Shown here one piece after another: positions 3,569 to 32,303 of a stretch of 37,769 nt of DNA (its first letter is position 1; each line of letters starts with the position of its first letter). The notes beneath the pieces are model-generated. The model was not told the origin of the DNA and did not search any database. It saw only the letters and a program-made list of their open reading frames with translations. The DNA comes from a virus (lineage: Duplodnaviria; Heunggongvirae; Uroviricota; Caudoviricetes). The translations under genes and the position numbers were made by a program. The DNA lies in the IMG/VR virus record IMGVR_UViG_3300045988_180316; one strand, written 5' to 3'.

Positions 3569-6500
3569 TTATTTGTTTGACTTCATTTTTTGATATTGGC
3601 TCCATTGGCGGTCGAAGCCATCGGGGCCGGTGATGACCACGTATGACTTGATGCCAGCGTTGAGCTGCTCGTTGAGTCTGTCGATGGTGGTATGCACGCT
3701 ATCGAGGGATGCGCCCATCTGCTCGGTGTCGCCACCTGATACGTTGACCACTGGGGCGACCACGGCTGCGCTGCCTGTGCCCATGGCACGGCTCACGTCT
3801 TGGGCGGTGAGCGAGGCGACCGTGTTGTTGCGCTGCGCCATATCGATGAGCTGCAGGGCAGGGAGGAGCTGAGGATTGTTGACGGCGTTGTGGTTGGCGA
3901 CGAACTCGCCAGCGTGAACCACGCCAGCCTCTTTCTTGTAATTGCCAGGACCAGTGAAACCACCCTCGTAATAGCCAGCCGCCTCTGCCTGGTGCTGCTT
4001 TTTGATTGTTGCTATCTGGAGCATGCCCGCTGCGGTGGCGAGACCTGCGGCGATAGGACCAAGGATGTGACCCACCACTGGGATGGCTGCGGCTGATGAG
4101 TAGGCGTTGATGGCAGCCATGGCGGTTGAAGCTATGGCTTGTGCGATCTCTATCTTCATCGCCTTTTTGTTGGCCTTGCTCTTGGCTGCAGCCACCTCTT
4201 TGTCTCGCTTCGCCTCGAGACGCTTTTTCTTGGCTGAGTTGTTGCCAGCGGCAGAAATCTGCTTATCGTAGTTTTTCTCGATCTTGGCGACCTCTAGGTC
4301 TGAGCATGCCTGGGAGTAGGCGGAGGCAGCGCCCATCATCGTGTTGATGCTGCTGAAGGCAGCGCCAGCGATGGAGGCTATCTCTTGATAGGTCTCTTTG
4401 TTCATCTGCTTTTTGGCATCCTGGTATTGCTGCTCGCTGATTTTATCCTCGTCTCGAAGCTTCTGAAGGTTTTGGTTGACCATCTTTTGCTGTTGGATGG
4501 CTGCGATGGCACCACCTGCGATTGTGGCGAGGTTGTCGCTGCCCATGGCATTACTGTTGTCGCCATTGCCCTTGGTCATCTTTTTGGCGGTGTCGAGGGC
4601 GGTGTTGGCATCCTCTTTGCGCTGCTCATCGGCGGTAGGCTTGTATGAGGCGTATTTGTTGGCGATGCCCATCTTTGTGCGCTGGTATTCCTCCTCTCTG
4701 ATGAGACCTGCCTTGTAGATGGCTTCGAGCCCCTGCAGCTCTAGTTGCATCTGCTCTTCGTTGCCGAGCTTGCCGTATTCTTGGCGCAGCTGAAGGAGTT
4801 GTTCGTCGTGTTGCTTCTGAAGGTCGTATTTGCGTTGCTGTTGGGTCAGCTCTCGCTCTTTCTCGATCTGGGCGTACTCGTCAGATGAGGAGAGGTAGAG
4901 GGCTTGTTTTTTGTTGAGATAGTCCTGGTATGAGAGAAAGAGAGCCTCGTTGACGGCATCCTCATTGTGATAGAGGTTGGAGTCTTTGTTGTAGTAATCG
5001 GCATTGAGCTTCATTTCTTTTTTCTGTCGCTCGGTCTCCAGGGCTTCGAGGTCGGCGGTCTGCTTTTTCTCGTAGTCGGCAGCGATGTTTTCTTTCTCTG
5101 CATTGAGTCGCTTGTACTCTTCGCTCTCAGCCTCGCCATACTTTTTGAGAATGTCGAGGCGATCCTGAAGCCCCTGCTCTTTGATATTCTTCATCTTCTC
5201 GTTGTATTCGGCGAGTCGAATCTGACCTGTAGCGTAGAGGGTCTTGGCATCGAGCTCTTCGGCTTGGTTGGCTTTCTTAGCATCGTCTAGCTCTTTTTTC
5301 ATGTCGGCCTTGCGCTTTGCCTCTGCCTTGCGAGCGGCAGCCTCACGTTTCTTTTTCTCCTTTTCGGCAGCTTTGCGCTCTTTCTCGGTCATGGTATGGC
5401 CAGAGGAAGGGGTGGTGTGTGTCTCTGTAGTTGCGCTATTGTTTAGTAAATTCTTCTTTACAGTCTTGTTGTACTGTTTCTGCAAATTTACGTTTTTCTC
5501 TAATTGCTGATTATAGAAATTCTCTTCAGCATTGACTTGCTTTTGCAGGCTTAGGTTTGCCTGTAGTCTTTGCGTATGAACTTGCTTTTGCTTCTCGTTA
5601 CTCTTCAGTGCCTCGTTTTGTTCGATGAGCTGACCTGTCCATCCATCAGCCACGGCATTGCTCTCATATTGCTTAGGATGAGCCTTGCGCTCAGCATCGA
5701 CAGCCTTCAGCGAATATCGTATGCGGCTTTCTTTTTGTTTGAGTTCCAGTTTCTTTTTATTGATTTCCACCTTGCGCTCATAGATGGCTTCTGCCATGGC
5801 AGCATTTTCTAGCTCCTTGATGTAGTTTTGGATGGCAATCTGGTTGTCGTTATACAACTTGCCCTCTTTGGAGATAGAGGCGTGATATTCTGGGACGAGC
5901 TTTATCATATTTGCGATAGCTTGCTTTCGCTCGTCAACGGTATAGGCATTGGAGTGGATAACCTTGTTGAGCATATCGACCTTGTTGCGCTCATCGAGGG
6001 TAGCATCAGACACCTTTTTGGCGAGGCTGGCTTGAGCCTCTGCCACTGCTCTGTTGTTTTTAGCCTCTTGCGTGTTGTTGCGCATCGCCTCGTTGTAAGA
6101 TGTTATGGCTTTGTATGCCCCATAGGCAGCCACGCCCACCACGGTGATGACTGTGGCGAGGGCAGCCCATGGATTGGTGAGACTTGCTAGGCGTGCTGCC
6201 CTCATCACCACGATGTAGCCCTGTATGCCTTTTGTGAGATAAGCCCATGTGGCTTGCAGTGCCACTAAGGCAGCACGCAAGAGTGTAGATGTAGCGGTAT
6301 AAGCTTTATCGACAGCTGAAGCGTATTGTACGGCGGCTGTTTTAATCTTAATGGCGATGGTCTCCTTGTACCAGAGAGCAGTACAAACAGCGATGGCTGT
6401 TGACAGCACGGCTATTTGTTTTGCATAGGTGACGGTGAAGGTGATGAGCGTGGACATGACCTTTATGGTCAGACTGAATGATGTGATGCCATATTTCATG

Positions 6501-7915
6501 GCAGGGATGAGTTTTTCTCCGAGTTCGATGGTGAGGTCTTGGAATCGCTTCTTGGCTTTGTCTAGTTCTGCCTGTACCGTTGTATTCTGGGTATTGAACT
6601 CATTGATGACACTGGTACCGTCGGCATACGACTTGGTGGCGATGTCTTGCGCCTCTTTCACTTGGTCGAGGTGTGTAGCCACGGCGGAGAGAACGCCCAC
6701 GGCACGGGTGCCGTTAAGCTGCATCTCCTCAAACATCGGTGCCATCTCGGCGAAACCACCCTTTGACTTCATGGCTTGCATGAACTTCATCAAGCCCTCG
6801 TTGGCGTTGGTCTTCATCAGGTTGGAGAACTCCTTGACCTGCATGCCCGCTATCTTGGCGAACTTGGCTGGCTCTTGGTACATCTTGGTGATGAGCTGTG
6901 AGAAGACGGTGGCGGAAGTCGCCTCCTCTTGCATATTTTGGTCGAGGGCAGAGGCGAGACCCATGAGCTGTGCCTGGGTCATGCCGGCCTGGATGCCGAC
7001 ACCTGAGAGGTCGGCAGTGAAATCGACGATGTAGCCAGCGTTGGCTGATGAGCTTTGTGCCAGCTCATTGACGGCGGAACCTGTGGCGAGCATCGCACCA
7101 CGAAGGCCTTTGGTCTTATCCTCACCAAACATCTGGGCGAGCTTGCCGATTTTATCGACCGCCCCCTTGCCGAGGTCATCGCCGAGGGCGACATTGATTT
7201 TGTCGGCACCATCAACGAACTCCTCGATCATCTCTTTGCTGGTGATGCCGAGGCGACCGGCAGAGCCAGCCAGCTCGTTGAGCTGCTCACGAGCCGTGCG
7301 GGTATCCATGCGCTTGAAGTCCTCGTTCATCTGATGAACTTGCTCATCGGTCTGACCTGTATATTTGCGCACGTCAGCCATCGACTCCTCCATGTCGGCG
7401 TAGGCTTGAGCTGCAGCTCTCAAAGTAAGAGTGAGTGTGGTGAGACTGCCCAGTATCTGGGTGAAGGCACCCCAGTTTTTGTTAAGACCATCCCACATTC
7501 TAGAGAACAAACTTCTGGAAGCTTTACCTTCGTCGTTGATGTGCTGCATCTCTGCTCGCACTTGCTTTAATTGCTTTTGCAGTTTTTTCCATTCGTCTGA
7601 GTTGCGCTTGATGGCACCGCTTTTCAACTCTCTGTTGAGAGCCTTGGCGACTAGTTGCAGCTCCTTGTATGATGCAGAAGAAAGATTGTTGAGAACTTGG
7701 TTAACCTTCTCTTGGCTAGTCATGTATGCTTTTGTCTCAGCCTTTAATCTCTTTATCTGTCGTTCGAGGGCTGTTGTTGACTCGCCCTTTGCATAAGCCT
7801 CGTCTCTGGCTTTTTGCACTTCTTTCAGCTTGTTTTGCAATTCGTTGAGTTTATCCTTAGCCTCTTTGGTGTCAAGAATAACTCTGCTAACATGGGTATC
7901 TGTATTTGTTGCCAT
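3569..7915 (-). CDS. Tail tape measure protein
   Basis: 1448 aa. It has N- and C-terminal coiled coils, a TP901-type core (...NELAGSAGRLGITSKEM..., ...EATSATVFSQLITKMYQEP...) and central hydrophobic helices. Confidence 0.9.
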   Translation of the reverse strand: MATNTDTHVSRVILDTKEAKDKLNELQNKLKEVQKARDEAYAKGESTTALERQIKRLKAETKAYMTSQEKVNQVLNNLSSASYKELQLVAKALNRELKSGAIKRNSDEWKKLQKQLKQVRAEMQHINDEGKASRSLFSRMWDGLNKNWGAFTQILGSLTTLTLTLRAAAQAYADMEESMADVRKYTGQTDEQVHQMNEDFKRMDTRTAREQLNELAGSAGRLGITSKEMIEEFVDGADKINVALGDDLGKGAVDKIGKLAQMFGEDKTKGLRGAMLATGSAVNELAQSSSANAGYIVDFTADLSGVGIQAGMTQAQLMGLASALDQNMQEEATSATVFSQLITKMYQEPAKFAKIAGMQVKEFSNLMKTNANEGLMKFMQAMKSKGGFAEMAPMFEEMQLNGTRAVGVLSAVATHLDQVKEAQDIATKSYADGTSVINEFNTQNTTVQAELDKAKKRFQDLTIELGEKLIPAMKYGITSFSLTIKVMSTLITFTVTYAKQIAVLSTAIAVCTALWYKETIAIKIKTAAVQYASAVDKAYTATSTLLRAALVALQATWAYLTKGIQGYIVVMRAARLASLTNPWAALATVITVVGVAAYGAYKAITSYNEAMRNNTQEAKNNRAVAEAQASLAKKVSDATLDERNKVDMLNKVIHSNAYTVDERKQAIANMIKLVPEYHASISKEGKLYNDNQIAIQNYIKELENAAMAEAIYERKVEINKKKLELKQKESRIRYSLKAVDAERKAHPKQYESNAVADGWTGQLIEQNEALKSNEKQKQVHTQRLQANLSLQKQVNAEENFYNQQLEKNVNLQKQYNKTVKKNLLNNSATTETHTTPSSGHTMTEKERKAAEKEKKKREAAARKAEAKRKADMKKELDDAKKANQAEELDAKTLYATGQIRLAEYNEKMKNIKEQGLQDRLDILKKYGEAESEEYKRLNAEKENIAADYEKKQTADLEALETERQKKEMKLNADYYNKDSNLYHNEDAVNEALFLSYQDYLNKKQALYLSSSDEYAQIEKERELTQQQRKYDLQKQHDEQLLQLRQEYGKLGNEEQMQLELQGLEAIYKAGLIREEEYQRTKMGIANKYASYKPTADEQRKEDANTALDTAKKMTKGNGDNSNAMGSDNLATIAGGAIAAIQQQKMVNQNLQKLRDEDKISEQQYQDAKKQMNKETYQEIASIAGAAFSSINTMMGAASAYSQACSDLEVAKIEKNYDKQISAAGNNSAKKKRLEAKRDKEVAAAKSKANKKAMKIEIAQAIASTAMAAINAYSSAAAIPVVGHILGPIAAGLATAAGMLQIATIKKQHQAEAAGYYEGGFTGPGNYKKEAGVVHAGEFVANHNAVNNPQLLPALQLIDMAQRNNTVASLTAQDVSRAMGTGSAAVVAPVVNVSGGDTEQMGASLDSVHTTIDRLNEQLNAGIKSYVVITGPDGFDRQWSQYQKMKSNK

Positions 7916-10926: not shown

Positions 10927-12501
10927 TCACGTGAATTTATAGAACTTCTTTTTGAACTTATTGTGAAGCTCTGCGACCACGGTGGAGAAGGGTAGCTCGT
11001 CACGACAGAAGTCGTTGAGGGCTTGGTCTATCAAGATCTTGGAGCCTGTATAGAGGTAGTGCTCCTGAGGCTGCCATACCTCGGTGCCGTCTGGCTCCAG
11101 GTGGTCGATGATGCGATAGCGAAGGGAGAGGCGCTTCTTGGGTACCTCTTTGGTGACCATGTGGGTGGAGCCGTCCGGGGCGGTCTCCTCTTGCTGGATG
11201 GTCTCCTTCTCTATCACCGAGTCATCGACCTTGTAGTCTATCACTTGGACGAGGAACTTGTTCTCGTCCTGACCCTCACGGCAGATGATGTCCTCGATGG
11301 ACTGCTGCTGTGATTTCTCCATACCGTCAAAAGGCACGCGCGCACGGCGAGCCTTGACGAGTTTACCGAATCTTTCCATACCGATTTTCTTATATAAGTG
11401 TTTTGAGTTTGCGTGGATGCCCAGTCCTAGGCGAGAGGCTGCCTTGATCTGTATCTGACGGTCTGTGAAGCCCGCCTTGCGTAAGTTGGCAATCTGTTTG
11501 CAGAGGTCGTGCTTGAACCGCTTGCGCAGCAGGGCGTGGTCAGCGTAGATGATCTGACCGCAGAAGTCGATGCCATCGCAGGTGCGGTGGATACCCCAAG
11601 ACTTATTGATGGATAGGTGCCAGTCACGGGCGAGGTGCATCACGGCAAGCTCTGCCATCAGCCTGAGGAACACCTTATCCTCGTGGAGGATGTAGATGTT
11701 GTCCATGAAGCGGTAATAATGGCGAAGACCTTGGCGGCAGAAGCGCTCGAACCTATCGTTGAGCGACTTCACCCCCCCACATAGCAGCTGAGCTTGCTGC
11801 TGAGTGCGACAGGTAACGAGCATGTCGCTCACGTAGCGAGCCTGCCAGTAACGGAACTTGTCGGTGTCTTGGAGAATGTCGAAGCATCGGAGTGCCAGGT
11901 AATCGAAGCGGGCGAGGAAGAGCTGACCCAAGAGTTGGGCGAGCTTGACGCCGAGCACGATGCCTGGATTGAAGCTATCGACCACCTCGTCGATGAAGGC
12001 GAGGAGCTTGCGGTCTTTGATCTTGCGGCGATATTCACTTTTGAGAAGAGCGTGGTCTATGCTCTGAAAATAATGGTGAATATCCATGGGCAAGCAGTAG
12101 AAGGTATCTTGCTGTGGCGAGTTGAAGATGTCTCGCTTGACAAGATTATAGAAATAATGGGTGCCCTTGCCCTTGGAACCAGCCGGACTGTGGCTGTAGA
12201 GTGTCTTGCGAAGGTTATCCTCTACAGGTTGCAGGGCAGCGTGCTGGATGACGTGGTCGATAACGGGCAGCTTGTTGACTTGGCGATGTTTTGGATAGTC
12301 GATATCTTTGGCGACATAGGCTGAGGTATGCCAAGTTTGTTGGGTGTAAGCATCGAGCATGCGTCCGATGTTATGGTCTAGGTTTGCCTCGAATTTTTGG
12401 ACCGCACGGCGAGACATCTTTTGTCGGGCGTAGTCATAGAATGCCCGACGAAAGTTGTCTAGTGTCTCGACCTGTGGCGATATGTTGCCAAACCTTTTCA
12501 T
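10927..12501 (-). CDS. DGR-type reverse transcriptase (atypical)
   Basis: 524 aa from ATG 12501. RT motifs: KLPVIDHVIQHAAL, SPAGSKGKGTH, CLPMDIHHYFQSIDH (motif A Asp), GIVLGVKLAQLLGQLFL (DGR-like motif B), YYRFMDNIYIL (motif C), IDFCGQIIY..LLRKRF. It lies next to a TR/VR pair. Confidence 0.88.
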   Translation of the reverse strand: MKRFGNISPQVETLDNFRRAFYDYARQKMSRRAVQKFEANLDHNIGRMLDAYTQQTWHTSAYVAKDIDYPKHRQVNKLPVIDHVIQHAALQPVEDNLRKTLYSHSPAGSKGKGTHYFYNLVKRDIFNSPQQDTFYCLPMDIHHYFQSIDHALLKSEYRRKIKDRKLLAFIDEVVDSFNPGIVLGVKLAQLLGQLFLARFDYLALRCFDILQDTDKFRYWQARYVSDMLVTCRTQQQAQLLCGGVKSLNDRFERFCRQGLRHYYRFMDNIYILHEDKVFLRLMAELAVMHLARDWHLSINKSWGIHRTCDGIDFCGQIIYADHALLRKRFKHDLCKQIANLRKAGFTDRQIQIKAASRLGLGIHANSKHLYKKIGMERFGKLVKARRARVPFDGMEKSQQQSIEDIICREGQDENKFLVQVIDYKVDDSVIEKETIQQEETAPDGSTHMVTKEVPKKRLSLRYRIIDHLEPDGTEVWQPQEHYLYTGSKILIDQALNDFCRDELPFSTVVAELHNKFKKKFYKFT

Positions 12502-12710
12502 AAGCGGTGTAATGTCTGTGTTGAACGGTGTATAAACTGTGTATAGTCTGAATCGTCTGCTTTTGTACACTTGATAACCTTCGACCGGATGACCGTGTTG
12601 TCATCATCTACCAGCTGTCTTATTGATGTGTATGTATCGCCATGGGGCGAGGATTGACCCTGTAATCTCGAAGTGGGAGCAAACGACCCACGAAGAGATA
12701 TGTCTGTAAG

Positions 12711-12865: not shown

Positions 12866-12873
12866 CAAAGGTA
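12866..12873 (-). promoter_or_regulatory. -7 box (TAccTTTG) positioned to start the TR-RT transcript
   Basis: Plus CAAAGGTA. The predicted TSS is about 25 nt upstream of the TR 5' boundary. Confidence 0.5.
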
Positions 12874-26400: not shown

Positions 26401-26660
26401 GCTGCAATTCCTCCCATCAGATAACCACCAGCAATCATCACTACCGCGAAGCAGGCTATGCCCACCATGGTCAATGCCACCTCGCCATAAGTAACCGTCT
26501 CTTCGCAGAGGTAGCTGAAGGTCTCGCTCCTGGTAGCCATGAGGCGCTTAGCCTCACGCTTGATTGCACACTTGAGGGATTTCATTCCCTCGTTCACATT
26601 CACGTGGATGCCGGCAGGCTTAGCCTGCATCGCATCATTTAATAAAATAGAATTCTGCAT
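26397..26660 (-). CDS. Small protein with a C-terminal TM helix
   Basis: 87 aa ending ...VALTMVGIACFAVVMIAGGYLMGGIAA. ATG 26660 lies 4 nt after repeat element E3. Confidence 0.55.
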   Translation of the reverse strand: MQNSILLNDAMQAKPAGIHVNVNEGMKSLKCAIKREAKRLMATRSETFSYLCEETVTYGEVALTMVGIACFAVVMIAGGYLMGGIAA

Positions 26661-26664
26661 ATTG

Positions 26665-26680
26665 CATCATCTGTTAAGCA
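26665..26680 (-). repeat. Element E3 (RNA: UGCUUAACAGAUGAUG), abuts the start codon
   Basis: Perfect 16-nt reverse complement of 26732-26747. Confidence 0.8.
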
Positions 26681-26712
26681 TTAGCAGCCAACTTGATTTC
26701 GTGAGAAAAGGG

Positions 26713-26795
26713 TGGCGGCTGCATTCCCCGTTGCTTAACAGATGATGACTTATCCGAGAGGACTAATCAAAAATCTACGGTTCATGCAGCCGCCA
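26713..26795 (-). repeat. 12-bp perfect inverted repeat enclosing E2
   Basis: TGGCGGCTGCAT (26713-26724) pairs with ATGCAGCCGCCA (26784-26795). Confidence 0.8.
26732..26747 (-). repeat. Element E2 (RNA: CAUCAUCUGUUAAGCA)
   Basis: Complementary to both E3 (16 nt) and E1 (14 nt). Confidence 0.8.
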
Positions 26796-26844
26796 TATTG
26801 GTACACCTTTTTCCCGTTGCCGGGAAAATGATACTCTTGGGCAT

Positions 26845-26875
26845 AAAAAAAGCCTGCGGCTGAGAAGCCATAGGC
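26845..26875 (-). terminator. Intrinsic terminator inside the leader
   Basis: Minus strand reads GCCUAUGGCU-UCUC-AGCCGCAGGC (9 of 10 pairs) followed by U7. It lies about 45-70 nt after the predicted TSS. Confidence 0.6.
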
Positions 26876-26904
26876 GAAACGGTCGCCCTGCCGGATAGAT
26901 TACT

Positions 26905-26918
26905 ATCATCTGTTAAGC
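26905..26918 (-). repeat. Element E1 (RNA: GCUUAACAGAUGAU), at the predicted 5' end of the transcript
   Basis: 14-nt direct repeat of 26666-26679. Confidence 0.8.
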
Positions 26919-26923
26919 GTTGG

Positions 26924-26955
26924 CAAAGGTAAGAAGAAAATCCGGAACCGCCAAA
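26924..26955 (-). promoter_or_regulatory. Full Bacteroidota promoter (-33 TTTG, 20-nt spacer, -7 TAccTTTG)
   Basis: Plus CAAAGGTA at 26924-26931 and CAAA at 26952-26955. The -33 box is formed by the end of the upstream terminator's U-run. Confidence 0.6.
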
Positions 26956-26984
26956 AAAAAAGCGAGAAATTTTCATTCCTCGCT
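26952..26984 (-). terminator. Rho-independent terminator of the secreted-protein gene
   Basis: Minus strand reads AGCGAG-(12 nt)-CUCGCU followed by U9. Confidence 0.7.
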
Positions 26985-27017
26985 CAATTTTATTTTCAAA
27001 ACATGTTTAATAACATA

Positions 27018-27416
27018 TTATTGCTCATCTTTGGTAATTAACCCTGCTCGAATCTCATCATCGTTCTTCACTCTCTTCACCAGAACATAGTGGAGAACAG
27101 CCCTGCCGGCACCCTCTGTTATATAATATGTCTTGTCAAGTTTCCAACCTTTCTTAGCCATATAATTCACGGCTGCCATGACGGTATTGAACTTGATCTG
27201 TTTGCCATCCTCACCATATAAGCTCTCGAAAGAACCTCCACCATTGGAGACTGCACCCATATCAAGCATGACCTTCACTTTGCCGACGCCCCAAAAGTTA
27301 TATGCCTTGAGGTCGCAATAAACCGGATACTTACCATCCTCAGACTGGATGGTGCTCTGCGCTCTAGCGCCAATAGCCATAAAAATGATGGCCATCATAA
27401 CTAAAAACCTTTTCAT
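27018..27416 (-). CDS. Small secreted protein (signal peptide), moron
   Basis: 132 aa. MKRFLVMMAIIFMAIGARA-QS is an SPase I-type signal with no lipobox Cys. The gene has its own -7 box and terminator. Confidence 0.7.
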   Translation of the reverse strand: MKRFLVMMAIIFMAIGARAQSTIQSEDGKYPVYCDLKAYNFWGVGKVKVMLDMGAVSNGGGSFESLYGEDGKQIKFNTVMAAVNYMAKKGWKLDKTYYITEGAGRAVLHYVLVKRVKNDDEIRAGLITKDEQ

Positions 27417-27443
27417 TTTTTAATGTTTAAATTTAAATCGATA

Positions 27444-27451
27444 CAAAAATA
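27444..27451 (-). promoter_or_regulatory. -7 box (TAttTTTG)
   Basis: Plus CAAAAATA lies 28 nt upstream of ATG 27416. Confidence 0.4.
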
Positions 27452-27544
27452 ACAATAAAATATTAGTTATTCTAACCATTTTATCTGTATTTATATAAAA
27501 TCTGCTGGAAATATGTTGTAGAGCATAAAAACGAGGGACTTTGG

Positions 27545-27581
27545 GAAGAAAAAAGCCCCGATGCATCACGCACCGGGGCTT
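27545..27581 (-). terminator. Rho-independent terminator after hicB
   Basis: 8-bp stem AAGCCCCG (27553-27560) / CGGGGCTT (27574-27581) followed by a U-run on the minus strand. Confidence 0.65.
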
Positions 27582-27647
27582 CTAAAGCGATCTTTTAATT
27601 TTTAATTGCATGAAGTACAATCGGCATGAAGCCGATCGAACTGTTCT

Positions 27648-28073
27648 TTAAACATACTGTAGAACTGGTCTATCTATCAAGAGTCCAGTATCTATATCTC
27701 CTTTAACTTTTGCTATACCTTGTCTAATTTTCTCCAAGCTTTTGCCTTGTGGTACCTTGATGCCTGCTGCATATTGTCGAAGCAACGAGGCGTTCATGCC
27801 GATATACTTGGCGAAGGCTGAGATACTTAGAGGATAGTAGTTGAAAAATGCCCCAACATCGAAGACGAAGTGAAACTCCAAGTCTGGGTACTCCTTACCT
27901 TCCTCCTCATAGAATTCTCTCATTTCCTTATCTGCAATGAGGAAATCTTCCATAGCAGCCTTTGCGGTCTTGCCGTCACCAATAAGGCCAAACGTCAAGT
28001 CATCAGTCCCAGTCATGAAGCAAGAATATAAATCCTTGCCAGACTCCACTACAACAGTAACTTTTCTTGCCAT
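27648..28073 (-). CDS. hicB: HicB-family antitoxin (N-terminal HicB fold plus C-terminal HTH)
   Basis: 141 aa: MARKVTVVVESGKDLYSCFMTG...TAKAAMEDF... with a C-terminal HTH-like ISAFAKYIGMNASLLRQYAAG. It lies downstream of hicA. Confidence 0.75.
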   Translation of the reverse strand: MARKVTVVVESGKDLYSCFMTGTDDLTFGLIGDGKTAKAAMEDFLIADKEMREFYEEEGKEYPDLEFHFVFDVGAFFNYYPLSISAFAKYIGMNASLLRQYAAGIKVPQGKSLEKIRQGIAKVKGDIDTGLLIDRPVLQYV

Positions 28074-28149
28074 ATCTTTCTATATATAAAGTTCATAATC
28101 AAAAGTGTCCTTCTTGCATACCAAGAAAATCATGGAAGAAGAACCTGGG

Positions 28150-28332
28150 CTAAAGCCCAAGTTCTTGATAGATAGATTTCAGAGTGCGAATATTCACCTC
28201 TTCAGTTCCATGCCGAGGAACGGCAGTGCTCTTCCCATTGGCTGGGTTGAACCAAATGTCGTGTCGGCCTCCATGACGAAGTAGAAAGCATCCCGCTTTC
28301 TTTAACTTCCGATACAGTTCACTGTATTTCAT
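28150..28332 (-). CDS. hicA: HicA-family mRNA interferase toxin
   Basis: 60 aa from ATG 28332: MKYSELYRKLKKAGCFLLRHGGRHDIWFNPANGKSTAVPRHGTEEVNIRTLKSIYQELGL, the typical HicA pattern. The track start at 28407 lies upstream of the promoter. Confidence 0.85.
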   Translation of the reverse strand: MKYSELYRKLKKAGCFLLRHGGRHDIWFNPANGKSTAVPRHGTEEVNIRTLKSIYQELGL

Positions 28333-28376
28333 AATCTCAGTATGTTTAAAGAACACTTTGTCCTTATTGGACGATG

Positions 28377-28408
28377 CAAAGGTAACAATAAAGTTATAAA
28401 TAACCAAA
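28377..28408 (-). promoter_or_regulatory. Full Bacteroidota promoter for hicAB
   Basis: Plus CAAAGGTA at 28377-28384 and CAAA at 28405-28408, with a 20-nt spacer. Confidence 0.6.
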
Positions 28409-28530
28409 TATTTCGGTAACTATTTTGTTATATTACCTAAGATTTAACATTTATACATAAAGATAAGCGATGTCCCTACCTCTTTTAGGCTCTTGCCAGA
28501 CCGCTTTCGCCGCTAGGCGAAAAATTTTCA

Positions 28531-28561
28531 GAAAAATAGGGAAGGTCGAAAAACCTTCCCT
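28531..28561 (-). terminator. Rho-independent terminator after radC
   Basis: 9-bp stem AGGGAAGGT (28538-28546) / ACCTTCCCT (28553-28561) followed by a U-run on the minus strand. Confidence 0.7.
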
Positions 28562-28576
28562 TGTACCTATTATATA

Positions 28577-29263
28577 TTATAGCTTTCCCTTGTCGTGGTA
28601 GCTGTAGAAGCCATCCTCGGCTAAGATGATGTGGTCCATCAAGAAGAGTCTCATCACCTCGCACGCCTTGGCTATCTTCTGCGTGAGCATATCGTCCGCC
28701 TTGCTCGGCTGCGTGCTGTTCGATGGGTGGTTGTGCGCCACGGCGATGATGGTTGCGTTGTTGAGCACGGCTTCTTTCATTATCAGCCTTATGTCCACCG
28801 CTGTGTCGGTGATGCCTCCCTCGCTGAGCTTCACACTCTTTATCAGTCTGAAGTTTTGGTTCATCAGCACTACCCAAAAGCCCTCTGTCTCATTGCTTCC
28901 CATCATCGGGCGAAGATAGTTGTAGAGTGCTAGGCTGCTGCCTAGGTCGGTATTACGTGCCACCTTTTCCATTTGGTAGCGTCTGCCTAGCTCGATGGCT
29001 GCCTGTAGGGCTATCGCCTTGCAGTCGCCGATGCCTGGTACCACCTCTAGGTCTTCGATTCTCGCCTTGCCGATATTGCGAAGTGAGTTGTCCATGATGT
29101 TATAAATCTGTCGTGCCTGCTCTTGGCTGTCCTTGGTACCTGCCCCTCTGTTGATTACCAAAGAAATCAAGTCAACGTTGGTTAGGGTGTCGAAGCCTTG
29201 GTTATAGGCTCTGTACTGCGGTCTCTCCTCCATACAAAGGTCGTTATAATTTTGTCGTATCAT
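28577..29263 (-). CDS. radC: RadC-like JAB/MPN-domain protein
   Basis: 228 aa with an HhH-like GIGDCKAIALQAAIELGRR and a JAMM motif ...ATIIAVAHNHPSNSTQPSKADDMLT.... Confidence 0.85.
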   Translation of the reverse strand: MIRQNYNDLCMEERPQYRAYNQGFDTLTNVDLISLVINRGAGTKDSQEQARQIYNIMDNSLRNIGKARIEDLEVVPGIGDCKAIALQAAIELGRRYQMEKVARNTDLGSSLALYNYLRPMMGSNETEGFWVVLMNQNFRLIKSVKLSEGGITDTAVDIRLIMKEAVLNNATIIAVAHNHPSNSTQPSKADDMLTQKIAKACEVMRLFLMDHIILAEDGFYSYHDKGKL

Positions 29264-29279
29264 AGCTATATTGTTTTAA

Positions 29280-29804
29280 TTAGTTATACATTCTCTTGGT
29301 TCTCGCTAGGAACATCGCTCCCATCACTTGTGCGCCACATTCTGCTAGCTCGTTGGCGAACTCTCGGGCGGTCGCACCGCTTGTCACCACATCGTCGAAG
29401 ATGATGACTTTCTTTCCGTTGAAATACTCTCTATCGAGTGCCACTCTGTAGTCGAAGCTCTCGCACACTCTGTCGGCGCTGAAGTGCTTTGCCGTGCGCT
29501 CGCCATAGATGGAAATGTGCTCGCTTCCGTTCTGTACCTTTGCGCCTTGGCTCACCTTTTGGGCGAAGCGAGAAAAGCGCTTGTTGTACTTCTTGGAGTT
29601 GGCTGCTGGTGCGCATACCATCACGAAGTCGCTGGCTTTGTCGCCATAGGTGTTGACGAAAGAGCTGACCACCATATCGGCTGCGGCGTCTGTCGCCCAC
29701 TGCTTGCCATCCTTGAAAGCAAAGATGAAGTTTCTCACTTGCTCGGCTTGCGCTGAGCGGTCGAAACGCTTGGAGTTGTACTCGTAATAATTGAAAGTTT
29801 TCAT
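29280..29804 (-). CDS. ComF-like phosphoribosyltransferase (type I PRTase domain)
   Basis: 174 aa with the PRPP-binding loop GKKVIIFDDVVTSGATAREF. It lacks an N-terminal zinc finger. Its stop lies 16 nt upstream of the radC ATG. Confidence 0.75.
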   Translation of the reverse strand: MKTFNYYEYNSKRFDRSAQAEQVRNFIFAFKDGKQWATDAAADMVVSSFVNTYGDKASDFVMVCAPAANSKKYNKRFSRFAQKVSQGAKVQNGSEHISIYGERTAKHFSADRVCESFDYRVALDREYFNGKKVIIFDDVVTSGATAREFANELAECGAQVMGAMFLARTKRMYN

Positions 29805-30596
29805 ACGCTCAAAATTTTTATTCTAGCCAGAGGGAGGAAGGAGCTTTTTGTTTGAACTCGTCTTTGCCTGCCCGTCTGAGAGTTTTTTTTATTCTGTCCG
29901 TCGGTCGTTTTTGTCGCTTTTTACGGTGCGATGCAGACGAGCGGAGAAGAGGTATGAAAGCCAAGGAATTTTGCAAAAAGTTTATGGAAAACCGCCATCT
30001 CTGATTGCGGAAGGCTGCCGAAAAGTTTTTGGAAAATAGATTTATCGGTACTTGGTGCATACCATCCGCCGTACCTTTGCACCCGAAAAAGAGATAATGA
30101 CCGATGGATAACCGATAAAGGGAAAAGCTCTCGGACAGGAAAAGCGGGCAAAGAAAAGGCTCTGCCTTACCTTGGTGGTTAAGCCTTAGCGACGTTTGAG
30201 CGCCATCACGGTCACCACCGCTTGAAAATTCGCAAATTTTAACCCTAGCGTATGAAATGAAAGATGGAAAATTTGCGTCATCAAAAACACCATGTTTTTC
30301 AGACTTCAGGAGGAAAAACATACCTTGGAGCGATGAAATCGCAGCATTTGGCAGGCTTCGACCCCGAGGTTGAAGATGCCAAATGTGTCGTTTTACGACA
30401 GGTTTTCCACACCCACGGATTGGAAAACCCCGATTTTATCGTGGTTTTAGGGATTCAAAGGGAAAATAATTCCCCTTTGTCGGCGATAGCACCCCCCACC
30501 GCCCTACGCCCGAGGGCGCCTTCCGCCCCCTTGGAAAAGACGGAATATGTAAAAGACCGTTAACGTTTTTGTAGGAATGTAAAAAGCCAAAAGGCA
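29805..30596. other. 0.8-kb region without convincing coding potential; GGAAAA/TGGAAAA motif array; candidate large ncRNA or protein-binding array
   Basis: Only junk-like ORFs occur here. GGAAAA appears 9 times on the plus strand (29986, 30031, 30121, 30138, 30266, 30312, 30422, 30461, 30533), and 5 of these extend to TGGAAAA. One inverted copy forms the 9-bp hairpin GGTTTTCCA-N11-TGGAAAACC (30401-30429). Confidence 0.45.
30072..30079 (+). promoter_or_regulatory. Lone canonical -7 box (TAccTTTG) on the plus strand within the non-coding region
   Basis: TACCTTTG at 30072-30079. No good -33 box is present, and no minus-strand -7 box occurs anywhere in 29805-30700. Confidence 0.3.
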
Positions 30597-30633
30597 CGAA
30601 AAAAGGGAACACGCTTCGCAGCGCACTCCCCTT
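30597..30633 (-). terminator. Rho-independent terminator after terL
   Basis: Minus strand reads AAGGGGA..CGCU-GCGA(GNRA)-AGCG..UUCCCUU followed by U6. One pair is G-U only on the minus strand. Confidence 0.6.
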
Positions 30634-30701
30634 ATCGGCGGTCAAGCAAGAATGCCAGCCACCTAACTTATATAAGAATCGTACTATCTAAAGAAATCAA
30701 A

Positions 30702-32303
30702 CTATAGCATGGAACCCGTGGCGATGTAGCCATCAGCCTGAGGGTATTTCTCCATGCCAATCATGAGCGTGTCGTAGGCATCGGAGCCATCGGTGCGAGC
30801 CTCCAACTTATCCTCCTCGGTCTCTGCCAGCTTCTCGCCTCGCTTATCCTTCTTGCCGTTGTAGACCCCGGCCAGGCGGATGGAGATGAGCAGGTCTTCG
30901 TTGTTCTCGCTGTTGATCATCGAGCGATGCTCAGCCTTGCCGAGGAACATGCGGTTGAGCAGAAGCATCTTTTCGAGATGTCCCATCGGGTTGCCCAGAT
31001 AGACCTCGTTGACATACCAGCCATGGTCGGTGAGGTAGTCGGTGATGAAGGTATGGAAGTCATCGTTCATCAGGGCGTAGTTGTTGCCCACGAAGGTGGA
31101 GTCGTAGTAGAAGTTGACCTCCTTGCACCGATGGTACTCATAGTACTGCATGAACTTGTCGAGCAGGGCGGGCAGCTTCTCCTCATACTTCACGAAGATG
31201 CTCTTGAGGCAGCGTGCCTCGCCCCGCAGGTTGTCTTGTCCGACGGCTATCCAGTTGATGAGGGCGTTGGCATCGAAGGCGATGCAGAGCGGACGGTCGG
31301 GGTCAACGTCGGCATCCATTCTGGAATCTACATGCTTGAGCTTGTCGATGTCGTAGCCTAAGCCATCGAGGTAGGCGAGGTTGGGCGCCGTGTATAGGTT
31401 GGCATCCCTGAGGTTGGAGTAGAAGCCATCGAGCGAGATGGAAGGCCGCTTGCACATGATGGAGGTCTGGAAGGTGAGGGCAGGGAGGTCTCGCTTCATC
31501 TGCTTGATGAACTCCATGCCGAGCACCTCGATGTTATAGACCGATGAGTACTCTTTATAGAAGAGTGCCTTGGAGCGCAGTTGCGCCAGGAGCTGACCAA
31601 TCTCTCGGAGTCGGCGCTGGGCATAGCCTGAGACATGGCCCGAGGTCTTGATGCGGTTGCGTATGTCATACTCCTCTACCACGAGCGAGGCGATGGCGTC
31701 GATGAGCAGCTGGTCGCAGTCTTTCTTGTAGTTGAGGAACCAGGAGCCCTTCTTGGTCACGGGCATATCAGAGGTGATGAGCATGCCATGGTGGTAGTAG
31801 TGCTGGCCGAAGAGGTTGACGTTGCCTCGATTGGCAGGGAAGGTCTCGTCTTTGAGCTGTTCGAAGTTGATGAACTTCGCCTCGTCGATGTCGAGGTAGT
31901 CGAGCGAGAGGGAGTTGGAGGTACCCTTGCGGTCTTGCGAGATGATGGTACCGATGGAGCCGTTATAGAAAGAGATGGTGTTCTCCCAGTTGCTGGGCGG
32001 TATGACCGGGTCGGGCCATCCCAGTTTTTTGGGAGGCTTGACCCCGATGAGATAATGCTTGCCCCGGTGGAAGCCCCATCGCTCCCAGTGCTGAAGCATC
32101 GACGGTATGGTGTTGGTGAGGCATCGCTTGGTGTTGGCGGATACGAAGCCGCCGTTGCTGCCAGGCATGCGCTGCATGTTGCGCAGGTTGAAGGTGGCGT
32201 GGAGAATGCTCTTGCCGATGCCTCGACCGCCCACGACCACGTTGTCGCGGGCGGAGATGAGGTTGACCTCCATCTGGGCTGGGTTGAGATATTGATCTAT
32301 CAT
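30702..32303 (-). CDS. terL: Terminase large subunit
   Basis: 533 aa with Walker A VVVGGRGIGKS, Walker B-like LDYLDIDEAKF and a C-terminal nuclease-sized domain. Confidence 0.88.
   Translation of the reverse strand: MIDQYLNPAQMEVNLISARDNVVVGGRGIGKSILHATFNLRNMQRMPGSNGGFVSANTKRCLTNTIPSMLQHWERWGFHRGKHYLIGVKPPKKLGWPDPVIPPSNWENTISFYNGSIGTIISQDRKGTSNSLSLDYLDIDEAKFINFEQLKDETFPANRGNVNLFGQHYYHHGMLITSDMPVTKKGSWFLNYKKDCDQLLIDAIASLVVEEYDIRNRIKTSGHVSGYAQRRLREIGQLLAQLRSKALFYKEYSSVYNIEVLGMEFIKQMKRDLPALTFQTSIMCKRPSISLDGFYSNLRDANLYTAPNLAYLDGLGYDIDKLKHVDSRMDADVDPDRPLCIAFDANALINWIAVGQDNLRGEARCLKSIFVKYEEKLPALLDKFMQYYEYHRCKEVNFYYDSTFVGNNYALMNDDFHTFITDYLTDHGWYVNEVYLGNPMGHLEKMLLLNRMFLGKAEHRSMINSENNEDLLISIRLAGVYNGKKDKRGEKLAETEEDKLEARTDGSDAYDTLMIGMEKYPQADGYIATGSML

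Follow-up and report, generated by a model that had tools for sequence, protein, structure and literature searches.

A phosphoribosyltransferase–RadC gene pair behind a palindromic leader in a Segatella copri prophage

The virus record IMGVR_UViG_3300045988_180316 of IMG/VR, a stretch of 37,769 nt (the window), is a Segatella copri prophage with a cassette of ~1.7 kb (window ~30170-28528), which consists of a palindromic leader, a gene for a stand-alone type I phosphoribosyltransferase (PRTase), a gene for RadC and a terminator. The PRTase is consistently paired with one of two exchangeable partners, the cassette is accessory to the phages that carry it, and its leader holds a conserved hairpin. 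The cassette is best read as a RadC-partnered variant of the modules that combine a PRTase effector with a DNA-processing partner. Here it is tentatively proposed, with confidence somewhat short of even, that the two proteins are a ShosTA-like effector/protector pair carried as prophage cargo, which would be silent in double-stranded DNA (dsDNA) and transcribed once the template strand is exposed.

The gene pair, its partners and its accessory status

The PRTase and RadC genes are minus-strand open reading frames (ORFs) located as in the original prediction for this locus, which had been made from the sequence alone and had proposed a two-gene operon with a spacing of 16 nt. Both statements hold, since the intergenic gap (29264-29279) is 16 nt long and the operon is genuine, with a terminator immediately past RadC.

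29280..29804, minus strand: stand-alone type I PRTase of 174 amino acids (aa), of the ShosT/ComF-like mobile-element clade; putative effector/toxin
28577..29263, minus strand: full-length RadC of 228 aa, with an N-terminal HhH and a C-terminal JAB/MPN domain; obligate partner of the PRTase
28528..28561, minus strand: strong intrinsic terminator ending the operon, a 10-bp stem AGGGAAGGTT/ACCTTCCCT followed by ATTTTTCT (hairpin 28561-28538 plus T-run)

Upstream of the pair, beyond an ORF-free gap, lies a gene for 533 aa (30702-32303), for which no match was found in Pfam or PHROG and whose homologues in Microcystis and Porphyromonas phages are annotated as the large subunit of the terminase (TerL).

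The genomic neighborhood of the PRTase was compared across 200 related loci, gathered by PRTase similarity from IMG/VR, GenBank phages and a collection with one genome per species; these sets overlap, and the PRTases of the loci amount to 131 different sequences. Immediately 3' of the PRTase stands a gene for RadC in 143 loci and for a YpsA-type SLOG/DprA-like protein in 55, the remaining two being cut by contig ends (28 RadC, 50 SLOG and 2 truncated loci in the one-genome-per-species collection). With RadC or SLOG directly after the PRTase in 198 of the 200 loci, co-occurrence is very strong, and the PRTase is not paired by chance. No PRTase without a partner was found in the 200 loci, the two contig-end cuts aside, and RadC stands after TerL without a PRTase in L266 and L267 and as a remnant in L204. 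A PRTase that is never alone and a RadC that sometimes is make up the asymmetry expected of a toxin and its protector.

For the SLOG partners, the Pfam match is YpsA (PF06908, E 1e-21 to 1e-24), and a weak similarity to ShosA (E 2.8e-5 and 3.3e-3) was also seen. According to a neighbor-joining tree of the PRTases, the partner type has switched at least two times. Two loci, from Bacteroides gallinaceum and Ca. Bacteroides avicola (L061 and L062), have PRTase, RadC and SLOG genes in a row (locus positions 3947-5772), adjoined by a HipA-like kinase and SSB (a binding protein for single-stranded DNA), and their leader is homologous to that of SLOG-only relatives. RadC and SLOG are thus able to coexist with one PRTase, and the arrangement looks like an intermediate of the partner swap. 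The two types also differ in their surroundings: 138 of the 143 RadC-partnered PRTases lie within 2 kb downstream of a TerL homologue and the SLOG-partnered ones never do. In one SLOG context inspected closely, SSB lies immediately upstream, and both a Toprim-domain protein and a TraG/TraD coupling protein are encoded close by; these neighbors indicate a conjugative element.

The accessory status of the cassette was shown by a second search, anchored on TerL and not on the PRTase. Among 57 phages with a TerL 92-100% identical to that of the window, 33 have the cassette and 24 do not; the latter retain the first ~370-590 nt of the gap and continue with other cargo, homology ending mostly at ~30223, with L204 (30170) and L252 (30116) as exceptions. 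The order TerL, gap, PRTase and RadC was also found in 14 of 16 loci of a phage group at 52% TerL identity and likewise in a group at 28%. From this presence and absence, and from the alternative cargo, the site after TerL is taken to be a cargo hotspot that is often held by the PRTase–RadC cassette. The mobile, accessory behavior suggested for the pair is borne out by its carriage in 33 of the 57 phages and by toxin-antitoxin cassettes as its neighbors or alternatives. Among human-gut Bacteroidales (Segatella, Prevotella, Bacteroides, Phocaeicola and Parabacteroides), the cassette is often met in prophages and in conjugative elements, so it may shape phage-host or phage-phage dynamics in the gut, where these bacteria are dominant.

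Three kinds of alternative cargo were seen at the site. In L206 and L224 (6234-7110) it is a SocA/Panacea antitoxin (PF13274, E 7e-18) together with a hydrophobic ORF of 123 aa that belongs to no known family, and L211, L239 and L252 have genes of unknown function for 142, 147 and 130 aa, the last of them DUF6941 (~6140-7600), followed further downstream in L252 by an uncharacterized 327-aa ORF that ends at the contig edge. The third cargo is a HicB-like gene.

The PRTase matches the Pfam family of type I PRTases above the gathering score (PF00156, E 6.5e-7), in agreement with the assignment made from sequence. The phosphoribosyl pyrophosphate (PRPP) loop VIIFDDVVTSGAT is present as described, its DD..T.G residues being invariant across the family (D137, D138, T141 and G143), together with R76 and R103. 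A zinc finger of the ComF type had been reported as lacking, and direct reading of the sequence likewise showed no four-cysteine finger, with no CxxC pair in residues 1-63. Consistent with this minimal architecture, the AlphaFold (AF2) model (pLDDT 89.8) holds the type I PRTase fold only and begins directly at the PRTase core. Its fold matches include PyrR, HGPRT, APRT and Helicobacter pylori ComF (7p0h), the latter with the highest query TM-score, 0.54, among the 50 fold matches listed. ComF is also the best match in NCBIfam (TIGR00201, E 7.7e-8), spanning the whole PRTase domain at 32.5 bits vs a cut-off of 233.55; the label ComF-like therefore stands at the level of the domain and fails as a statement of family membership.

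In the defence library of PADLOC, the best match is ShosT (E 3.9e-10, residues 30-171 vs positions 79-213 of the 237 in the profile), and PsyrT comes second (E 2.6e-8) through positions 554-685 of 689, which are its PRTase end. Seven relatives of the PRTase gave ShosT E-values of 1e-10 to 1e-16. A sequence search of the PDB with the family profile returned PRTases, salvage PRTases included, in matches confined to the PRPP loop. When 1.84 billion representatives were searched with a profile, 1182 relatives were found at E <= 1e-10, many of them C-terminal domains of large multidomain proteins, which fit the clade of 'mobile-element PRTase' described by Iyer et al. (PMC5512222). Fusions of the domain were observed with DUF6273, with ankyrin repeats plus DUF6273 and with HTH_40 (representatives P0354, P0368, P0371 and P0367), and it is also C-terminal in many proteins of 430-1200 aa whose N-termini lack annotation and which resemble polyvalent proteins. 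In the ten long proteins checked, the domain was not fused to RadC or SLOG.

To our knowledge, RadC is among the most widespread bacterial proteins without known activity. The RadC of the cassette was verified in all three respects in which it had been described: the RadC-type JAB domain (PF04002, E 9e-36), the N-terminal HhH domain (PF20582, E 6e-12) and the intact HNHPS...D metal motif, which was aligned to the structure of a RadC homologue (2qlc, PDB, E 2e-14). It exceeds the NCBIfam cut-off of TIGR00608 (149.9 bits vs 133.85) and shows ~60% full-length identity to the protein annotated as 'DNA repair protein RadC' on the S. copri chromosome. Published predictions see RadC as a nuclease or as an enzyme that processes nucleotides (PMC3239186).

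The palindromic leader and its promoter box

The ORF-free gap between the 533-aa gene and the PRTase gene had been described as a putative noncoding RNA (ncRNA) region of 0.8 kb; it measures 897 nt (29805-30701), and it is composite, with ~480 nt of phage backbone and ~340 nt of leader specific to the module. The gap is noncoding, with 114/118/106 variable positions per codon phase vs 72/38/366 in the 533-aa gene, and it is conserved to the same degree as its flanking genes. No conserved ORF was found in it among relatives, and hidden coding, including a 99-aa plus-strand ORF (30264-30563), was rejected for want of codon periodicity and conservation. No Rfam match was found in the gap, either for the window at gathering thresholds or for positions 26600-30800 at E <= 1.

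The backbone part (30701 to ~30223, ~480 nt) persists in relatives lacking the cassette and is therefore not part of it. It has at least eight stem-loops, with RNA fold z-scores of -4.5 (minus strand) and -4.7 (plus strand); packaging signal, terminator array and ncRNA are conceivable roles of this hairpin stretch. Positions 30223-30701 show 70-95% identity in all close relatives, with or without the cassette. The leader (~30170 to 29805, ~340 nt), on the other hand, accompanies the PRTase gene and is, as read from its sequence, a palindromic DNA element that bears a promoter box.

29835..29983, plus strand: proximal arm R, -179 to -30 from the start codon, with a degenerate mirror box; template arm in the hairpin model
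29984..30021, plus strand: spacer between the best-aligning arms, apical part of the predicted hairpin
30022..30167, plus strand: distal arm L with the promoter box, non-template arm in the hairpin model
30072..30079, plus strand: canonical Bacteroidetes -7 box TACCTTTG(CA), which equals TACCTTTGCA, the only canonical box in the leader
30147-30168, minus strand: terminator-like hairpin overlapping the outer end of the distal arm

Arm R and the reverse complement of arm L share 105 identities in 130 positions (z 18.8). The wider hairpin center (~29976-30036) has two 16-nt direct repeats (29976-29991 and 30021-30036), and a 16-nt motif inside the spacer (CGGCAGCCTTCCGCAA, 30005-30020) is exactly common to L035, whose PRTase-SLOG leader is otherwise unrelated. 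Long imperfect palindromes were found in 13 of 16 leader clusters, with arms of 50-180 nt (z 4-20) and the box always in the distal arm. The leaders are homologous across cassettes, as a profile made from those of another phage group finds the window leader (E 5e-14) and also the leaders of three further groups, SLOG-partnered ones included; with nhmmer, the gap profile of the window cluster gave no match in the gap of a distant phage (L034).

Folded as single-stranded DNA (ssDNA), the plus strand (the template for the PRTase gene) gives one long hairpin of -68.6 kcal/mol (z -6.8) and the minus strand gives -48.4 (z -2.6); in 12 of the 13 clusters, the template strand folds more stably than the other. 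Covariation was evaluated in an alignment of 14 leaders, down to 53% PRTase identity, in which the 82 pairs of the hairpin are 96.7% paired. Compensatory changes were found in 18 pairs, vs 8.6 +/- 1.7 in shuffles (0 of 500 reach 18) and 1-3 in slid controls, and many of the G-T pairs correspond to A-C mismatches on the opposite strand. The hairpin is strand-specific and under selection.

The Bacteroidetes promoter box has the consensus TAnnTTTG. The box of the window leader has the extended form TAyCTTTGCA, which also stands directly upstream of other genes in the phage, and its direction depends on the state of the DNA: it points away from the PRTase gene in dsDNA and into the gene in the plus-strand hairpin, where it lies on the 3' arm, reading to the stem base, with a part of it (ACCT) in an internal loop. 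A box on the opposite strand, 210-345 nt upstream of the gene, was found in 12 of the 16 leader clusters, with a TTCG near-match in three more, and it is partly unpaired in 7 of 12 clusters. In the 650 nt upstream of the PRTase genes, hardly any gene-sense box occurs, and none was found between TerL and the PRTase gene of the window. Because the template-strand hairpin faces the box to the gene and no gene-sense promoter was found in dsDNA, ssDNA-dependent transcription is predicted, in which a polymerase positioned at the hairpin box would transcribe the 5' arm and proceed into the PRTase gene. As far as could be found, this unusual leader has no earlier description.

The strand asymmetry and the missing sense promoter speak against a role as structured sense RNA. 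It is possible that an antisense RNA starts at the box in dsDNA; the sequence that it would cover is, however, the least conserved part of the leader. A further consensus-like box (TACCTTTGCG, 29535-29542, plus strand) is antisense within the PRTase coding sequence (codons A-K-V). It is probably due to chance, as its A-K-V residues vary in other clusters; if active, it would give an antisense RNA over the 5' end of the PRTase and the hairpin.

Known systems and competing explanations

The original prediction had placed the pair in no described system, and this was upheld: PADLOC matched only the PRTase domain, to ShosT and PsyrT, and gave no match for the partner, while the literature searched held no description of PRTase–RadC pairing. 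The pair of DprA and PRTase mentioned in that prediction corresponds to ShosTA, which is the closest known system because sister lineages of the window PRTase carry a SLOG/DprA-like partner in the place of RadC. The suggested link to retrons proved weak (PRTase_III-A, E 2.5e-4), with no reverse transcriptase or msr/msd at the locus; the sole reverse transcriptase of the window (10927-12570) is ~17 kb from the cassette.

ShosTA was reportedly described in E. coli by Millman in 2022. As set out in passages of Pu 2025 (PMC11961720) and Yang 2026 (PMC12961424), it is a type IV toxin-antitoxin/abortive-infection system of E. coli, in which the toxicity of ShosT depends on PRPP binding and disturbs purine metabolism and replication, and the DprA-like ShosA binds ssDNA and RecA and neutralizes ShosT without binding it. 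Both systems are operons of a PRPP-binding PRTase followed by a DNA-binding, repair-linked partner, and both are carried on prophages or mobile elements with the PRTase always partnered. ShosT is also the best defence-library model for the PRTase family (E 4e-10 to 1e-16), and the partner in the sister lineages belongs to the SLOG/DprA superfamily, with weak similarity to ShosA. They differ in the host phylum, which is Bacteroidota for the window, and in the palindromic leader with its promoter box, for which no counterpart was found in those passages on ShosTA. As the cassette misses the N-terminal domain of ShosT and a DprA-like partner, it is a variant that probably works like ShosTA and not a member of that system.

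By analogy with ShosT, the PRTase would bind PRPP and disturb nucleotide metabolism or DNA replication. RadC, putatively a functional analogue of the DprA-like ShosA, would counter or repair the consequence on DNA through its HhH domain for DNA binding and its JAB metallo-hydrolase site, without sequestering the toxin, and so take the role of ShosA; the pair may act in defence. In the double-stranded prophage, with a terminator-like hairpin upstream and the only canonical box pointing outward, the cassette would be silent. Transcription would occur, as from Frpo/ssi elements, mainly when the template strand is single-stranded in the course of, for instance, rolling-circle replication, transfer or resection. 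It is possible, and on balance doubtful, that the whole is an ssDNA-triggered system, with a Bacteroidetes hairpin promoter as a functional analogue of Frpo, which would keep both genes silent in dsDNA until conjugative entry, rolling-circle replication or nuclease resection exposes the template strand, and with RadC as the enzymatic counterpart of the PRTase, interchangeable with DprA/SLOG; if so, it would be the first defined biochemical context for RadC. More speculatively, and modeled on DarT/DarG, the PRTase might add phosphoribosyl to ssDNA bases and RadC might remove it.

The comparison with Frpo/ssi elements concerns geometry and the conserved hairpin, and was made by published description and not by sequence. 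These ssDNA promoters sit in the leading regions of conjugative plasmids, where anti-defence genes stand behind them (Samuel 2024, PMC11541004). Like them, the window leader is a noncoding imperfect palindrome of ~300 nt directly upstream of early or accessory genes, with a template-strand hairpin. The candidate promoter elements would face the downstream gene, the melting-region element lying in a stretch that is unpaired in part; SSB and conjugation genes stand beside the SLOG sister cassettes. It differs in having a Bacteroidetes -7 box (TAnnTTTG) and not the -35/-10 hexamers of sigma-70, and in lying in a dsDNA prophage after the terminase gene and not in a plasmid leading region. If the leader is an ssDNA promoter, it would be the first Bacteroidetes-type and the first phage example found, as far as searches show, and a searchable marker of early or replication-coupled genes in Bacteroidota.

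Several observations weigh against the ShosTA-like, ssDNA-dependent proposal. The 174-aa PRTase lacks the pyrophosphatase-like hydrolase domain that forms the N-terminus of ShosT (residues 1-164 of 424 aa, as given in a passage of PMC11961720); similarity to ShosT at the PDB level consists of the PRPP loop alone (E 0.028), and ShosT is missing among the 50 fold matches listed. The partner, RadC with its HhH and JAB domains, is unrelated to DprA/ShosA and has no PADLOC ShosA match. Regarding the leader, the pairing of the box equals or exceeds that of its flanks in 5 of 12 clusters, the TTTG-like element at -33 is only approximate (CTTG or TTTG at 14-19 nt), and the strand asymmetry of the hairpin could come partly from base composition. 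The box in dsDNA should drive an outward antisense transcript, which the proposal leaves unexplained. A dsDNA phage has no obvious stage of entry as ssDNA, so the Frpo-like reading needs a replication or damage intermediate. Finally, the position of the cassette after TerL is constant in phages whose TerL is only 28-52% identical, which could instead reflect a role in the life cycle of the phage.

The strongest competing explanation, considered possible but unlikely, assigns the cassette to establishment or anti-defence: a ComFC-like PRTase with RadC or SLOG would protect, process or prime ssDNA or blunt host immunity, being expressed from an ssDNA promoter like leading-region genes, and the phages would have acquired the cassette from conjugative elements. 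ComFC, DprA and RadC are all members of competence regulons, which deal with ssDNA entering the cell. Additionally, ComF is the best NCBIfam match of the PRTase and H. pylori ComF has the top query TM-score among the matches listed, and the SLOG cassettes stand beside SSB, Toprim-domain proteins, DUF1281-type genes and a TraG/TraD coupling protein. The Frpo-like leader would fit the anti-defence logic of leading regions (PMC11541004). However, dsDNA phages do not enter cells as ssDNA, and the cassette occupies a cargo hotspot by HicA and a putative HicB, where it is exchangeable with a Panacea antitoxin cassette, typical toxin-antitoxin or defence cargo. The only characterized relatives, ShosT and, as cited in a passage of PMC11961720, PsyrT/RqlH, are toxins, and a PRTase that is always partnered next to a RadC that sometimes lacks the PRTase fits toxin logic. 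Compared with ComFC itself, the window PRTase has a similar fold (TM 0.54) and a functional neighborhood of DprA/RadC type; it lies, however, far under the ComF family cut-off, has no N-terminal zinc finger, and is prophage-encoded in a locus without a ComFA helicase or a competence context.

It is rather improbable that the pair serves the DNA metabolism of the phage itself, in nucleotide salvage or modification or on replication and packaging intermediates, with late read-through from the terminase operon and the hairpin as a processing, priming or packaging signal. Such a role would agree with the order of TerL, gap, PRTase and RadC, kept across 28-100% TerL identity, with the lack of a gene-sense promoter between TerL and the PRTase gene, and with a RadC that is a close paralogue of the host housekeeping RadC. 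Frpo elements are also named primer-RNA sites in the title of Masai and Arai 1997, as cited in a passage of PMC11541004. On the other side, 24 of the 57 near-identical phages manage without the cassette, the PRTase and its leader also occur in non-phage conjugative contexts with the other partner, and a terminator-like hairpin stands between TerL and the cassette. Moreover, the PRTase family is nearest to toxin PRTases and its matches to salvage PRTases consist of the PRPP loop only.

An inverton, that is, an outward promoter flipped by a site-specific recombinase between inverted repeats, with assemblies in the OFF state and rare ON cells, was regarded as highly unlikely. Bacteroidales are rich in invertible promoters, the promoter points the wrong way in 12-15 of the 16 leader clusters with inverted repeats flanking it, and one compensatory change falls within an 11-nt repeat pair. 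However, the pattern of a flipped junction was found 0 times in IMG/VR and 0 times in a metagenome collection, in which the unflipped pattern was found in 17 contigs, and no cluster has a member in inverted orientation. The 'repeats' are arms of 70-180 nt that hold the promoter, so that an exchange between them would not reorient it, and the cassette has no recombinase and the clusters no common repeat consensus. Two candidate repeats were rejected: an 11-nt repeat over the start codon (29799-29809 / 30247-30257) is not conserved among subgroups, and AAAAGGCTC, taken as a possible consensus of recombinase sites, is enriched near the gene in 8-9 of 16 clusters and has an inverse partner in 3 of 16 vs 1.2 expected.

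Equally remote is the reading of the whole ~0.9-kb gap as one structured ncRNA acting with both proteins, retron-like or like a type III antitoxin: the gap is indeed noncoding, conserved as its neighboring genes are, and better folded in both halves than shuffled sequence, but its TerL-proximal 480 nt remain where the cassette is absent, it has no Rfam match even at E <= 1, no gene-sense promoter anywhere and no reverse transcriptase at the locus, its module part is a single long palindrome with a box in one arm and not a multi-domain RNA fold, and RNAalifold gave only -12 and -16 kcal/mol on a diverged leader cluster, weak energies that are probably due to the alignment, as the window-cluster alignment gives a clear hairpin.

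Two further known pairs bear on the proposal of a PRTase effector with a DNA-processing partner. A gene pair of a YpsA-clade SLOG and a PRTase has been remarked on as uncharacterized in passages of Burroughs 2015 and Brzozowski 2019 (PMC6459960). Exactly this pair makes up 55 of the 200 loci; its PRTases are of the same family, and some of these loci also have a homologous leader. The window has RadC in the place of SLOG, and the RadC type is tied to phages, after TerL, whereas the SLOG type occurs in conjugative-element-like contexts; text searches of these papers found neither the pairing with RadC nor the leader. PsyrTA/RqlHI, a RecQ-like helicase-PRTase toxin with a DprA-like partner, likewise shares the PRTase clade and a partner linked to DNA processing. 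It differs from the window PRTase, which is stand-alone, has 174 aa and no helicase domain, and matches only the C-terminal 130 of 689 profile positions.

As an obligate partner of a toxin-type PRTase that is swappable with a DprA-like SLOG, RadC is offered a testable function. We know of no physiological substrate of ShosT-type PRTases, and a minimal PRTase of 174 aa with two alternative partners would be a simpler model for PRTase toxins.

Prophage setting and neighboring genes

A near-identical locus (L041) lies within a genome bin of S. copri. The window starts with a tRNA gene followed by an integrase gene, and this end is a probable attachment site and left end of the prophage.

224-299: tRNA-Met (CAT), with its own TACCTTTGCA box at 185
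416-1579: tyrosine integrase, after the tRNA-Met

The minus strand holds nearly all of the large ORFs, and the window also codes for a head protease, a tail protein and a reverse transcriptase. The cassette is immediately followed by genes for HicA (PF07927, E 1e-12) and a putative HicB of 141 aa (27648-28407), which were found in only some relatives and are hence considered independent cargo. HicA (box at 28377) and a predicted secreted protein, both downstream of the pair, have a separate Bacteroidetes promoter box each.

The reverse transcriptase (10927-12570; phrog_1423, E 1e-54) has an RT-17 RNA (Rfam, 59 bits) just upstream (12553-12654) and a minus-strand promoter box nearby, at 12866. 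Together with the RNA, and located by the tail genes, it is probably a diversity-generating retroelement. Four minus-strand promoters (7938, 10440, 20298 and 25661) have in common a phage-specific element, (T)CTCGTATTTTTAT(T)A, ~20 nt before TAyCTTTGCA, and look like a co-regulated class, perhaps a late one. A related sequence, GAGCGTATTTT, recurs in the leaders of SLOG-type PRTase cassettes.

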